Source: Candidatus Falkowbacteria bacterium RIFOXYA2_FULL_47_19 | GTDB taxonomy: Bacteria; Patescibacteriota; Patescibacteriia; Patescibacteriales; UBA12075 | Direction: 5' to 3' | DNA: 57,840 nucleotides | NCBI GenBank assembly: GCA_001780275.1 | Contig: MFGB01000017.1 | Span: 1-57,840, forward strand | Part shown: in pieces, positions 175 to 6,261 of the stretch | Numbering within the stretch: the stretch's first letter is position 1 | Layout: every line of letters starts with the position of its first letter | Position numbers and translations under genes: made by a program | The notes under the pieces: generated by a model | Told to the model about the DNA's origin: nothing | The model's database searches: none | Seen by the model: the letters and a program-made list of their open reading frames with translations, nothing else

Positions 175-1383
175 ATGAATAAAATAATCAAAAGTATAAA
201 TAATAATCAGGAGGGCGCGACCGGCCTGATGCTGGCACTGGTAATACTGACGGCAATTCTGTCCATTACCTTGGCGGCCAACGAGATCGTCAGGCATGGC
301 GTATCGTTTTCCTGGCACCAGCTCCATTCCACCAAGGCTTATTACGCTTCCGAAGCCGGGATCGAGCAGATCCTTTTCGGTATCCGCAAGGAATATTTAA
401 GGTTCGATCAATGCGCCGGCACCGGCGACTGCATCCAGTTTTCCGGCTCTGATATCGCCACTATCCCTTCGACCGACAATATCGACTGCGACAATACCTG
501 TCCGAATGCCGGTGCCGTTAAAACCCTGTCCAACGGCGCTTCTTTTTACCTGGCTTACGCGAGTTCCACCTCGGCCTATATAGCCACTAACACCGTCGTC
601 TCTTTCGGAAGCTTTGACAGCGCCAACGACATAAACCGGGCGGTACAGATAGTCTATTTAAAGCATTTCTGCGTCGGCCCGGAATGCGCCGCCACCGCCG
701 ACCGATCCTGCCTGGATATCCTTAACAAAGGAGGATCGACGGGGGACGGCTATTACTGGATAAATCCTTTGGGTACTTTGGAATTCGAAGTTTATTGCGA
801 TATGTCCGGCGGCGGCTGGATAGAATTGGCCCCCTATAACGGCGTCCACGGCCACGGACTTTATATGTGCAGTTATGACGCCGCGCAAAGCGCCACGGAA
901 TGCGGACTACCCCTCGGCCCCGCGTCGCCGTACCCCGAAACGACCTGGGTGTATAATTCCAATACTGCCGTCGGCCAGACGATAGCTCCGGGGCACGATA
1001 CCAACGACTGCCAGAATAATTTTACCTGGCAATACGAATCCGGGCCGGGAAATATCCTTACGAATGAAGCCGTGTACCAGATATCGCAGATAATTACCGA
1101 AAAAAATTTCGATATTCATTCCACCTCCTGCGATGATGATAATCGGGCGGCTGACGAAGGGCATTGGAACGGCTTCTTCGACCGCGGCGGTTCCGGCCCT
1201 TATTACAGCGATTGCTCGAGCGGAAATATGGCTTATTGCGACAGCATTGTCGGCAATATTTTCGATACCTGGCCCCTGCCGATCGACGTCTGCTGCTCCA
1301 TAAACGAGGGCGGCGGCGGCGGGAACGACCCCGGAGGAGGGGTTTTCATGGGATTCAGCCGGCCGGATCTGAGAGTGAGATAA
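175..1383 (+). CDS. PilX-like minor pilin/adhesin with C-terminal fibrinogen-like (YCDxxxGGGW) Cys-rich domain
   Basis: N-terminal QEG|ATGLMLALVIL hydrophobic helix; AYYASEAGIE PilX-type motif; SCLDIL...GDGYYWINP...EVYCDMSGGGW. Confidence 0.7.
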   Translation: MNKIIKSINNNQEGATGLMLALVILTAILSITLAANEIVRHGVSFSWHQLHSTKAYYASEAGIEQILFGIRKEYLRFDQCAGTGDCIQFSGSDIATIPSTDNIDCDNTCPNAGAVKTLSNGASFYLAYASSTSAYIATNTVVSFGSFDSANDINRAVQIVYLKHFCVGPECAATADRSCLDILNKGGSTGDGYYWINPLGTLEFEVYCDMSGGGWIELAPYNGVHGHGLYMCSYDAAQSATECGLPLGPASPYPETTWVYNSNTAVGQTIAPGHDTNDCQNNFTWQYESGPGNILTNEAVYQISQIITEKNFDIHSTSCDDDNRAADEGHWNGFFDRGGSGPYYSDCSSGNMAYCDSIVGNIFDTWPLPIDVCCSINEGGGGGNDPGGGVFMGFSRPDLRVR

Positions 1384-4047
<2,664 letters not shown>

Positions 4048-4050
4048 TAT

Positions 4051-4335
4051 ATGCTTACTAAAAAAGACATACAACACATCGCCGATCTGGCTCGCTTGGA
4101 TTTGACCGAAGAAGAATTAGATAAATACGGGGAGCAGCTAACCCGGATTTTGGGATATATCGACCAATTGCAGGAAGTAAATACCGACGGGGTTGAGCCG
4201 GCCGCGGCCGCGACGGGCGAGAATGTCTGGCGGGAAGACGAAGTTTCGGAATGGGACGAAGGGGAAGTAAAAGAAGCTGTGGGCGAGGCGCCTGAGACGG
4301 AAGAGGGGCAGGTTAAGGTAAAAAGAGTTTTGTGA
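4051..4335 (+). CDS. gatC: Asp/Glu-tRNA amidotransferase subunit C
   Basis: HIADLARL...ILGYIDQLQEVNT...VWREDE...VKVKRVL; directly upstream of gatA. Confidence 0.95.
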   Translation: MLTKKDIQHIADLARLDLTEEELDKYGEQLTRILGYIDQLQEVNTDGVEPAAAATGENVWREDEVSEWDEGEVKEAVGEAPETEEGQVKVKRVL

Positions 4336-4432
4336 TTACAAATTCACAAATTAAATCACAAATGCACGAATATTTATAAAACATGTTGATCTGGTGTTTG
4401 TGAATTCGTGATAAGATTTGTGTATTTGTAAT
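4335..4432 (+). mobile_element. Empty inverted-repeat element, copy C
   Basis: 37-bp left arm 4335-4371, 24-bp spacer containing AACATGTT, 37-bp right arm 4396-4432; fills the whole gatC-gatA gap. Confidence 0.8.
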
Positions 4433-5891
4433 GAAATTAATGAAGCTAAATGAACTAACAATCAAAGAAGCCGGCGAGAAACTGCAAAGCAAAGAGATCA
4501 CATCGGTCGAATTGACTCGAGATTGCTTGGCGCGCATTAAAGCGGTTGACGATAAGATCAGGGCCTGTCTTACGGTCTGCGAAGAAGAGGCGATCGCGGC
4601 GGCCGAAGAAGCCGACCGGCGGATCGCGCGGGGGGAATCAGGCGCTTTTTTAGGGATTCCGTATCTGGCCAAAGACAATATCATGACCCGGGGCGTTAAA
4701 ACCACGGCCGCTTCGAAAATTTTGGCCGATTATACGGCGCCTTTCGACGCTACCGTAATAGAAAAACTTAAAAAAGCCGGGGCCGTGCTCCTGGGCAAGA
4801 CCAATCTAGACGAATTCGCGCATGGCGCATCGACGGAGAACAGCGCCTTCGGTCCGACTCATAACCCCTGGGATCTTGACCGGGTGCCGGGGGGTTCTTC
4901 CGGCGGTTCGGCGGCGGCGGTCGCGGCGGACATGTGCCTTTTCGCCCTAGGAACCGACACGGGCGGGTCGATCCGCCATCCGGCCGCTTTTTGCGGCGTG
5001 GCCGGTTTAAAACCTTCTTACGGACGCGTCTCCCGGTTCGGTTTGATCGCCATGACCTCCTCTACCGACGTGCCCGGACCTCTCGCTAAAACCGCGGAAG
5101 ATGCGGAGCTGGTTTTAAAGGTGATCGCCGGACGGGATAAAAAAGATCCCACTACGGTCGATCCAAAGAAAGCGCCGGCAAGATCGGTTTTATCGCTTTC
5201 GGGCTTAAAGATCGGATTGCCTAAAGAATATTTTATCGATGGTCTTGAGAAAGACGTGAAAGATATCATCGAGGGAGCTAAAAAGAGATTCGCCGAATTG
5301 GGCGCTCGTCTGGTCGAAGTCGAATTGCCGCACACAAAATACGCGGTGCCGGTTTATTATATAATAACGCCGTCGGAAATAAGTTCTAATTTGGCCAGAT
5401 TCGACGGCATCCGGTATGGACTTTCCGTTTCCGAAGCTACGGGCCTGCGGGAGATTTACGCGCAGAGCCGGGGCCGAGGATTCGGACCGGAAGCGAAAAG
5501 GCGCATTATGCTCGGCACTTACGCCTTGTCGGCCGGTTATTTCGATGCTTACTACCTTAAAGCGCAAAAAGTGCGGGCCAAGATCAGGGAGGAGCTGGAT
5601 AGGGTCCTTGATACCGTCGACTGCCTTTTAACCCCGGCCACGCCTCACGCCGCTTTTAAGATCGGCGCGCAATCGGATGATCCCTTAAAGATGTACCTGG
5701 AAGATATTTTTATGGCCGGGCCTTCGCTCGCCGGATTGCCGGCCCTGGTCATTCCGGCCGGCCTCGCGGACAACCTGCCCGTCGGATTGCAGCTTGTTGG
5801 CCGGCGGTTCGACGAGAAAACCATACTTGATATCGGACGGATTTATGAAGAAGCGGAGGGACGGACGATAAAGAAAGAATTGGATCTATAA
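4431..5891 (+). CDS. gatA: Asp/Glu-tRNA amidotransferase subunit A
   Basis: Amidase signature GGSSGGSAAAV, GTDTGGSIR, SSNLARFDGIRYG, KRRIMLGTYALSAGY. Confidence 0.98.
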   Translation: MKLMKLNELTIKEAGEKLQSKEITSVELTRDCLARIKAVDDKIRACLTVCEEEAIAAAEEADRRIARGESGAFLGIPYLAKDNIMTRGVKTTAASKILADYTAPFDATVIEKLKKAGAVLLGKTNLDEFAHGASTENSAFGPTHNPWDLDRVPGGSSGGSAAAVAADMCLFALGTDTGGSIRHPAAFCGVAGLKPSYGRVSRFGLIAMTSSTDVPGPLAKTAEDAELVLKVIAGRDKKDPTTVDPKKAPARSVLSLSGLKIGLPKEYFIDGLEKDVKDIIEGAKKRFAELGARLVEVELPHTKYAVPVYYIITPSEISSNLARFDGIRYGLSVSEATGLREIYAQSRGRGFGPEAKRRIMLGTYALSAGYFDAYYLKAQKVRAKIREELDRVLDTVDCLLTPATPHAAFKIGAQSDDPLKMYLEDIFMAGPSLAGLPALVIPAGLADNLPVGLQLVGRRFDEKTILDIGRIYEEAEGRTIKKELDL

Positions 5892-5895
5892 CAAG

Positions 5896-6144
5896 AGATC
5901 GGCGACTAGTATAGGCGCTAATATCATAGAGGCTAAAGCCGCAAGTTCTAAAAGAGATTTTATAAAGTTTTTTGAAATAGCTTTAAAATCAGCAAATGAA
6001 ACTAAATATTGGATTTGTCTTTTAAGAGACGGTACGGATTTTGGTAAAAAAAAGAAAGATACTTTAAATAAAGACCTTAAAGAGGCGGAGGAAATTTCAA
6101 GAATGCTCGGTTCCAGCCTGCTCACTCTGAAAAACAAAAAATAA
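5896..6144 (+). pseudogene. 5'-truncated four-helix-bundle (23S rRNA IVP-like, TIGR02436-type) gene remnant
   Basis: Not in the ORF track; + frame reads RSATSIGANIIEAKAASSKRDFIKFFEIALKSANETKYWICLLRD...EAEEISRMLGSSLLTLKNKK*; in-frame stop at 5869-5871 and no ATG ahead of the conserved block. Confidence 0.85.
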
Positions 6145-6192
6145 CTTTGAATTTTTAACTGTGGTTTTGCGCTTTGCGTTTTGAGTTTTGAT
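6145..6192 (+). repeat. Heptamer repeat arm downstream of four-helix-bundle remnant
   Basis: CTTTGAA TTTTTAA CTGTGG TTTTGCG CTTTGCG TTTTGAG TTTTGAT starting immediately after the stop codon. Confidence 0.7.
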
Positions 6193-6261
6193 TGAGTTAA
6201 ATAAAGATTTTTCAAAAAATTATATAATAAATGATTTATTAATAATTTTCACTTAAAAATT

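Follow-up and report, generated by a model that had tools for sequence, protein, structure and literature searches.

The 57,840-nt window analysed here (G000:C17:1-57840, contig MFGB01000017.1) belongs to a Candidatus Falkowbacteria genome, G000, of an ultra-small bacterium of the Candidate Phyla Radiation (CPR). Its ligA-gatC-gatA junctions are occupied by members of a family of hairpin elements, some short and without an open reading frame (ORF), others built around a small nuclease-like gene of the GxxExxY family. We consider it probable, at roughly 0.6, that the short elements are constrained hairpin derivatives, similar to the miniature transposable elements with inverted repeats called MITEs, of a nuclease cassette of the intervening sequence (IVS) type, and that they are docked at operon junctions. 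A role of the elements at the level of RNA, in translational coupling or in RNase III processing, is plausible. Three things are new here: the mini form, its connection to cassettes with ACRAAW arms and GxxExxY cargo, and the evidence that the arms are under constraint.

Copy C is a 98-nt ORF-less palindromic element in the gatC-gatA junction (4335-4432, with ends ATTACAAAT...ATTTGTAAT). Its left arm (4335-4372, nhmmer E 1.4e-6) is made of four units of CACRAAT type, separated by 1-nt linkers and, in the middle, by a 5-nt spacer, and its right arm (4395-4432, E 8.2e-7) is the inverted version of the left. The A of the gatC stop codon (TGA 4333-4335, + strand) doubles as base 1 of the element, and the terminal AT of the element, with the G that follows, forms the first in-frame ATG of the gatA frame (4431-4433, + strand), which is paired in the stem base of the predicted fold. 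Copy A, 99 nt long and also ORF-less (1384-1482), spans the interval from the stop of a GGGWT-domain gene to the start of ligA: it starts directly after TAA 1381-1383 and stops 6 nt short of the ligA ATG at 1489. Between ligA and gatC lies a full cassette on the + strand (3568-4047), composed of a left arm (3568-3604), the GxxExxY ORF and a right arm (4011-4047). The left arm includes the ligA stop (TGA 3586-3588), and the right arm stops 3 nt before the gatC ATG at 4051. All of these placements had been noted in a first-pass annotation of the sequence and can be read directly from it.

The arms are about 37 nt long, with four CACRAAT units in an 8-nt register, variable 1-nt linkers and the central 5-nt spacer. 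Arm complementarity is 81% over 36 nt in copy C and 86% over 37 nt in the full cassette, and the arms are predicted to pair into a stem of about 35 bp that contains a 5x5 internal loop as well as single mismatches. The first-pass annotation had supposed that the three loci fold into long stems, and the predictions agree: the + strand RNA of copy C gives -32.4 kcal/mol (z -4.6) and that of copy A -25.6 kcal/mol (z -3.2), with 0/200 shuffles as good in either case, and when a 511-nt stretch containing the full cassette is folded, its arms are paired in both the minimum free energy (MFE) and the centroid structures.

A profile of six arms returned 32 nhmmer arm matches in the genome at E up to 0.08 and one more at E 2.4. 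From these, 15 two-armed elements can be assembled, besides one atypical 57-nt copy (C10:74758) and one solo arm (C23). Fourteen of the two-armed copies are ORF-less, 78-110 nt long and spread over 9 contigs, and are thus short, non-coding, dispersed and bounded by terminal inverted repeats (TIRs), as MITEs are. The occupied junctions include gatC|gatA, scpA|scpB and pilB|pilC|next gene; further copies follow gatB and lepA or precede murJ and a DEAD-box helicase gene. The flanking genes are housekeeping genes, and most copies are inside operons.

The placement of the copies is clearly non-random. Relative to the 1545 genes (87% coding) from a custom crude caller, a start codon lies within 10 nt of the element in 10/16 copies (uniform intergenic null 6.9%, binomial tail 1.4e-8) and a stop codon does so in 10/16 (null 6.8%, tail 1.2e-8); both are that close in 7/16, for which the null is 0.59% and the tail 2.8e-12. 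Limiting the null to AT dinucleotides leaves the result unchanged. The degree of surprise hinges on whether insertion is counted per base or per junction: in a per-junction null, a residual spacer of 25 nt or less is found for 8/16 copies vs 23.6% of junctions (P = 0.019). In docked copies the 5' end falls 0-8 nt past the stop and the 3' end 1-10 nt ahead of the start. Seen from the stem, the stop stands 0-8 nt before it in 10/16 copies (inside it for ligA) and the start 1-10 nt past it in 10/16 (overlapping its end for copy C), which is where a coupling hairpin would have them.

AT stands at the start of every copy and also at the end of each, with the exceptions of C5:90216 and the atypical C10 copy. 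In copy C, C10:74758, L148 and L151 the final A of the stop codon is also the first A of the element. These ends are compatible with a 2-bp AT target duplication, TG[AT]...[AT]G. The near-palindromes have no fixed orientation with respect to transcription (4 same, 9 opposite, p 0.27). The first-pass annotation had held that random placement or orientation of the copies would speak against its idea. On placement the idea fared well; orientation is indeed mixed, but a palindrome would give that in any case, so the idea is not refuted by it.

Docking also bears on the possibility that the family is selfish DNA with no RNA role, its docking reflecting survivable sites and its arms being either the ends bound by the GxxExxY protein or products of gene conversion. 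We rate this as unlikely, if still a serious contender. It sits poorly with the fact that 98.5% of intergenic bases are in spacers longer than 25 nt, yet half of the copies have a residual spacer no longer than that, and with the scpA|scpB junction, where the residual spacer is 8 nt in G000 vs 51 nt in G001, a genome of the same genus. Points in its favour come from the cargo protein and from the arms, and are given below.

We also considered whether the elements work as DNA in the manner of Correia elements, with outward promoters in the arms (a TGnTAAGAT-like extended -10 about 20 nt from the ends) driving the downstream gene. By eye, TG(A/T)TAAGAT can be found in the right arms of copy A, copy C and the full element, and Correia elements are reported in PMC2649163 to make promoters and to bind RNase III. 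A sigma-70 scan, though, returned promoter-like sites at shuffle level in the region: 5 in 1300-4600 vs 4.8 expected, none of them in copy C, and only 2/5 overlapping arms (the right arm of copy A, and the right arm of the full element on the minus strand). Furthermore, most copies are within operons, where a new promoter is not needed, and the motif is not common to all subfamilies, which leaves this explanation very improbable. No terminator-like sites were found at the elements in a scan.

The minis and the full cassette share 79-86% arm identity, and their homology does not stop at the right arm but reaches about 20 nt further, into the 3' end of the ORF (repeat family D1). Judged by sequence, the minis are ORF-less derivatives of the ORF-bearing GxxExxY cassette. 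The cassette, which shares arms and part of the loop with the minis, is a candidate for the autonomous partner that a MITE would have. It encodes a protein of PD-(D/E)XK type with weak fold matches. That protein, the product of the GxxExxY / PDDEXK_3 gene at 3606-4004 (+ strand, 132 aa), matches TIGR04256 with 99 bits and PF13366 with 101 bits. Its model shows a minimal PD-(D/E)XK fold and is confident (pLDDT, the predicted local distance difference test score, 91.5), and residues D73, E83 and K85 are invariant or nearly so in 68 GxxExxY sequences. A fold search with the model gave weak matches to Cas4 SSO0001, lambda-type exonucleases and Hjc resolvases (template modelling (TM) score 0.44-0.56), and a sequence search of the PDB found no relatives at E up to 1. 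In a table of PMC3424549 the function of the GxxExxY family is given as 'Unknown'.

Cassettes of this architecture are not restricted to one cargo. The other cargo genes of the genome (1 more GxxExxY and 6 four-helix-bundle genes, one of them truncated) all lie between inverted arms of short tandem units, each cassette having its own unit sequence. Flush docking was looked at in the cassettes on C10, C13, C17:99541 and C25, leaving aside C23, C6 and the truncated copy, and all four are flush with stop and start. Beyond this genome, we fetched 80 GxxExxY relatives, mostly from CPR, of which 77 were analysable for arms. Arms scoring at least 14 are present at 42/77 loci and are nearly all of ACAAAT/ACGAAT-type units. 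Among these 42 armed loci, a co-directional ORF upstream has its end no more than 12 nt from the arm in 25/37, and a downstream ATG is equally close in 21/39. At least two ACRAAW upstream together with at least two WTTYGT downstream occur at 35/70 GxxExxY loci, and the reverse polarity at 1.

These ACRAAW arms accompany GxxExxY proteins that are only 33-68% identical, which argues for a sequence-specific partner of the arms in addition to pairing. A protein-recognition site of this kind is also what the selfish-DNA alternative would call for, and the nuclease fold, with its weak resemblance to Cas4, lambda-type exonucleases and Hjc resolvases, is in keeping with that alternative.

The family is patchy over 41 related genomes: 21, 22, 25, 23 and 7 matches were found in G000, G001, G013, G019 and G011, respectively, 1-2 in 11 others and none in 25/41. 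G005, a 91% complete genome of the genus to which G019 belongs, has 0 matches. In G013 the copies have one loop sequence in common and in G019 another (9 copies with clear ends among 11 fetched). Such genome-specific shared loops indicate that the mini form multiplies as a unit, as MITEs do. The idea that each mini is an independent relic of a deletion in situ had been suggested by the differing loops of G000 and by the cassette at the copy A site of G001, and is weakened by the bursts in G013 and G019. Minis may have originated by both routes, deletion in situ and multiplication as a unit.

Comparison of G000 with G001 shows the family in several states. Seven of 9 compared mini sites are shared and 2 differ: at fmt|VTT and scpA|scpB, G001 has unrelated sequence of 51-52 nt and the flanks are not joined. 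At the copy A site, G001 (L043:1807-2316, G001:C24) has a complete cassette instead. Its GxxExxY gene is intact yet distinct (128 aa, with 29-30% identity to the window protein) and lies between arms of the ATGCGAATCTAC... type, and this cassette is docked as well, 1 nt past the stop and 5 nt ahead of the ligA ATG. The ligA|gatC cassette of G001 (L002:620-1135) has an in-frame TAA at codon 71 of its GxxExxY gene (TAT in G000) and intact arms, which suggests that the cargo decays before the hairpin. Decay of the cargo ORF is equally in line with selfish DNA.

Another repeat, about 130 nt long and unrelated to the family, is located upstream of scpA (L035:258-398 = G000:C16:153657-153797). G001 has it in at least 6 places and lacks it at the orthologous site, whose flanks overlap there by about 7 nt, and it looks like a second, recently mobile small element.

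The arms of the elements are constrained between species. Across 7 orthologous minis compared between G000 and G001, arms are 94.2% identical (517 positions), loops 86.7% (143 positions) and other aligned intergenic DNA 86.9% (1939 positions, plus 494 gapped); codon positions 1, 2 and 3 are 94.2%, 96.6% and 79.0% identical (5182, 5183 and 5175 positions). The arms differ from other intergenic DNA (p = 1.3e-6), and the loops do not (p = 0.9). A+T content does not explain this conservation, as A/T third positions are 74.8% identical vs 92.5% for A/T element positions. The G001 orthologue of copy C is 98% identical, and 7/7 G001 copies are predicted still to fold, at -19 to -33 kcal/mol. Substitutions affect 23/476 paired vs 26/184 unpaired positions of the G000 fold (p = 1e-4), a contrast that is inflated, because the structure came from one of the two genomes compared, and that becomes about 6% vs 11% after a rough correction. 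Of the 23 changes at paired positions, 15 retain a standard pair and 8 break it.

An RNA stem, a DNA hairpin, a protein site and gene conversion all fit these data alike. That paired positions change less than unpaired ones tells against selfish DNA with no RNA role. In favour of that alternative, complementarity within elements (81-86%) is no higher than between copies (79-83%), the loops evolve like other intergenic DNA and an asymmetry between sense and antisense is absent.

Several observations weigh against our preferred reading of constrained hairpins docked at operon junctions, in addition to the inflated paired/unpaired contrast. Six of the 16 copies are undocked, and the gene starts used for docking are those set by the caller. 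The strand asymmetry expected of selection on RNA was not seen: the sense strand folds better in 10/16 copies (p 0.45), and the antisense strand folds far better in two (C16, by 14.4 kcal/mol, and C17:113763, by 9.3). No clean empty site was present at the sites compared with G001, which leaves the AT duplication a conjecture. Gene conversion among copies, or a role at the DNA level, might account for the conserved arms. At gatC|gatA, the relatives described below include 13/26 with unstructured spacers, so that a hairpin is not needed for gatA expression. Finally, folding, coupling and processing in vivo are all inferred.

The first-pass annotation had proposed a stricter form of coupling, in which the stem loops out the insert and re-forms an ancestral gatC/gatA overlap, TGATG, so that termination-reinitiation coupling is preserved. 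Its arithmetic is correct: excision of 4336-4431 leaves TGATG. The predicted stem is stable, and coupling efficiency drops with stop-start distance according to the review PMC12548453. The genome is, as had been assumed, poor in Shine-Dalgarno (SD) sequences, with GGAG at -20..-4 in 11.9% of 1298 genes vs 4.5% in shuffles. Upstream of the start codons of these 1298 called genes the sequence is A/T-rich: 61% have T at -1, and the share of A at -6..-3 is 45-50%.

The relatives do not bear the TGATG proposal out. The order ligA-gatC-gatA is kept across the order (GatA match in 36/41 genomes, 30 loci fetched), and 26 non-genus relatives have both gatC and gatA. The position of the gatC stop is kept in relatives (...GTTTTG TGA/TAA). 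In 24/26 the ATG of gatA falls, in the alignment, on codon 4 of the G000 frame, the second in-frame ATG (4440-4442, + strand), which lies 7 nt beyond copy C. The start in the first-pass annotation, 4431, is the first in-frame ATG, but the one conserved in relatives is 4440. The three in-frame codons between the two differ within the genus, MKL in G000 vs MKS in G001. Counted from ATG 4440, copy C ends 7 nt before the start, like its sibling copies (1-10 nt), none of which ends within an ATG.

TGATG at gatC|gatA occurs in none of the 26 relatives. Nor are abutting or overlapping genes the rule there: the spacer is 1-4 nt in 2/26, and in 13/26 it is 23-53 nt with no significant structure (MFE -8.8 or weaker), which shows that abutting stop and start are not required at this junction. 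At the full element, removal would restore no ligA stop, and a ribosome on the gatC stop would presumably melt the very stem base that holds A4431-U4432. The strict proposal is accordingly quite improbable. As the gatA start is conserved at ATG 4440 and TGATG is found in no relative, the restoration of TGATG is probably incidental, a by-product of the AT ends of the element and not a restored ancestral signal.

The remaining junctions in the relatives are rich in inserts. Several of the unstructured spacers contain single ACRAAT-type arm remnants (L003, L012, L013, L017, L021), and heptamer hairpins of other unit sequences are found at gatC|gatA in 2/26 relatives (z -4.6 and -7.9). In 9/26, gatC|gatA holds inserts of 178-868 nt. 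That of L006 is a full GxxExxY cassette of the same arm family (protein 63% identical), and the other large inserts include two four-helix-bundle cassettes and one GIY-YIG gene. In L007, a 99-aa GIY-YIG gene with GC-rich hairpins is found at the ligA-gatC-gatA junctions, and palindromes of the TGTCATTGCGAG...CTCGCAATGACA type are present there in L006, L011, L014 and L008. The ligA-gatC-gatA junctions are insertion hot spots, used by selfish elements of several kinds. A broader notion, that most operon spacers are cassette debris, was rejected: strong 7-nt periodicity is present in only 23 of the 599 co-directional spacers between 20 and 160 nt long, against 0.2 in shuffles, and at lag 8 no spacer showed it.

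LigA of relatives ends in ...KMI/KLI, and ligA and gatC overlap as ATGA in 3/25. In L017, from another genus, the LigA tail is also derived from an arm (ITNLQV). In the window, the final five codons of ligA (TNSRI) and its stop are inside the left arm of the cassette.

What survives of the coupling idea is a hairpin running from stop to start that would hold the flanks together, and this fits the RNA-unfolding coupling model published in PMC12548453. On our preferred reading, the element would have inserted at an AT that is part of the stop codon or directly follows it, and would be co-transcribed with the operon. The insert would have been tolerated, and then kept, because it folds back on itself, leaving the stop-side and start-side flanks adjacent. 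A ribosome terminating at the base of the stem might then melt the last few pairs and free the A/U-rich start region, by RNA unfolding or by reinitiation; the stem may in addition be cleaved by RNase III, in the manner of rRNA intervening sequences. The arrangement resembles the coupling of phage f1 VII/IX and MS2 coat/lysis (reviewed in PMC12548453), in that the hairpin stops shortly ahead of the downstream start, with the end of the upstream frame at or in it; the folds here are predicted and coupling would be by analogy. The f1 and MS2 hairpins are native sequences of one operon, whereas here a mobile repeat occurs at many operons.

RNase III might also do more than assist. In a literal mRNA counterpart of an IVS, cleavage would part the gatC and gatA messages, leaving a protective 3' half-stem on the upstream one and a very short, SD-independent leader on the downstream one. 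The architecture is that of the Coxiella burnetii 23S IVS as described in PMC4990558, with its 28-bp terminal stem, its GACAGAT tandem heptamers and a site, at the start of the first repeat, that RNase III cleaves. The genome has an RNase III gene (238 bits), the predicted stems are about 35 bp with internal loops, and in 10/16 copies the start codon would follow the stem closely enough, at 1-10 nt, to give such a leader. The early region of phage T7, with its intercistronic RNase III hairpins, provides a precedent. Cleavage would, on the other hand, uncouple subunit genes such as gatC/gatA and scpA/scpB, and folding shows no strand asymmetry. We hold this outcome to be doubtful.

The analogy to rRNA intervening sequences drawn in the first-pass annotation is nonetheless apt, as GxxExxY and PF05635 genes alike lie between inverted arms of short units, and the Coxiella IVS is built alike (PMC4990558). 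The elements share with the 23S rRNA IVSs of Coxiella burnetii (helix 45) and Leptospira a long TIR stem with tandem units in the arms. Also common to both are a small, decaying ORF in the loop (the Coxiella IVS ORF is reported to decay in PMC4990558), host RNA that here, too, would continue on both sides, and PF05635, which here is found in sister cassettes. They differ in lying between protein genes and not in helix 25/45, and in a cargo that is PF13366 PD-(D/E)XK and not S23p/PF05635, copies A and C having no ORF at all. No element arms were found in the organism's own 23S rRNA in the part of the alignment examined, the gene being partial and cut by the contig end. This gene (G000:C4:23332-25562, L147) breaks off at about position 1955 of the Rfam model, in comparison with which it has two insertions (about 65 and 30 nt, near positions 282 and 314) that are not heptamer-armed in the part of the alignment examined.

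With Correia elements of Neisseria and with ERIC, REP and BIME, as described in PMC2649163, PMC2229807 and PMC10969869, the family has in common its size of about 100 nt, TIRs, dispersal, location in (here presumably) transcribed intergenic DNA, hairpins and lineage bursts, as well as a possible 2-bp target duplication. In contrast to those, the arms consist of four 8-nt units and are not a simple TIR, the full form encodes a small nuclease and not a known transposase, and docking on stop and start is much tighter. We found no description of hairpin-armed GxxExxY or four-helix-bundle cassettes in operons in a literature search that most subscription journals lay outside of.

A more far-reaching reading would have a nuclease hairpin cassette invading essential-operon junctions across CPR, with its gene-less hairpins selected as intercistronic RNA modules. 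Expression would then proceed through shunt-like reinitiation over about 100 nt at the stem base, or through RNase III trimming to near-leaderless messages. We regard this larger picture as speculative and rather unlikely.

All genes in the first 6 kb of the window are on the + strand, in the order GGGWT-domain gene, ligA, GxxExxY, gatC, gatA and a four-helix-bundle fragment. The GGGWT-domain protein gene occupies 175-1383 and ligA 1489-3588 (LigA, 794 bits). Within ligA, an in-frame run at 3321-3348 (CAGAAAACAGAGAACAGAGAACAGAGAAC), containing three AGAGAAC units (repeat family D8), is placed by an alignment to 12 relatives in the variable linker before the BRCT domain, where no length change is seen. 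gatC (4051-4335; GatC, 75.8 bits) is followed by gatA, which counted from the first ATG extends from 4431 to 5891 (GatA, 588 bits). Directly after the gatA stop, and in another frame, comes a truncated four-helix-bundle gene ('23S rRNA IVS protein', PF05635; 5893-6141, + strand): the stretch 5893-6195 retains the C-terminal two-thirds of PF05635/TIGR02436, the N-terminus is gone, and a run of TTTGCG/TTTGAG-like units follows the fragment at about 6160-6195. The PF05635 fragment at the gatA 3' end looks like a decayed cassette.

The stops, C-terminal tails (such as TNSRI on LigA) and extra starts that the elements supply have an effect on how genes are called in CPR genomes. Should the hairpins work at the RNA level, they would represent a mobile, modular way to insert about 100-500 nt between coupled essential genes without breaking their expression, in a nearly SD-less organism. 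Were they to be intercistronic RNA modules that work by shunting or by RNase III trimming, they would offer a general route to operon expression in SD-less genomes. The cassettes offer a testable function for two large families, the GxxExxY/PDDEXK_3 proteins and the four-helix-bundle '23S rRNA IVS' proteins, and they tie rRNA intervening sequences, long puzzling, to a wider class of operon-riding cassettes.

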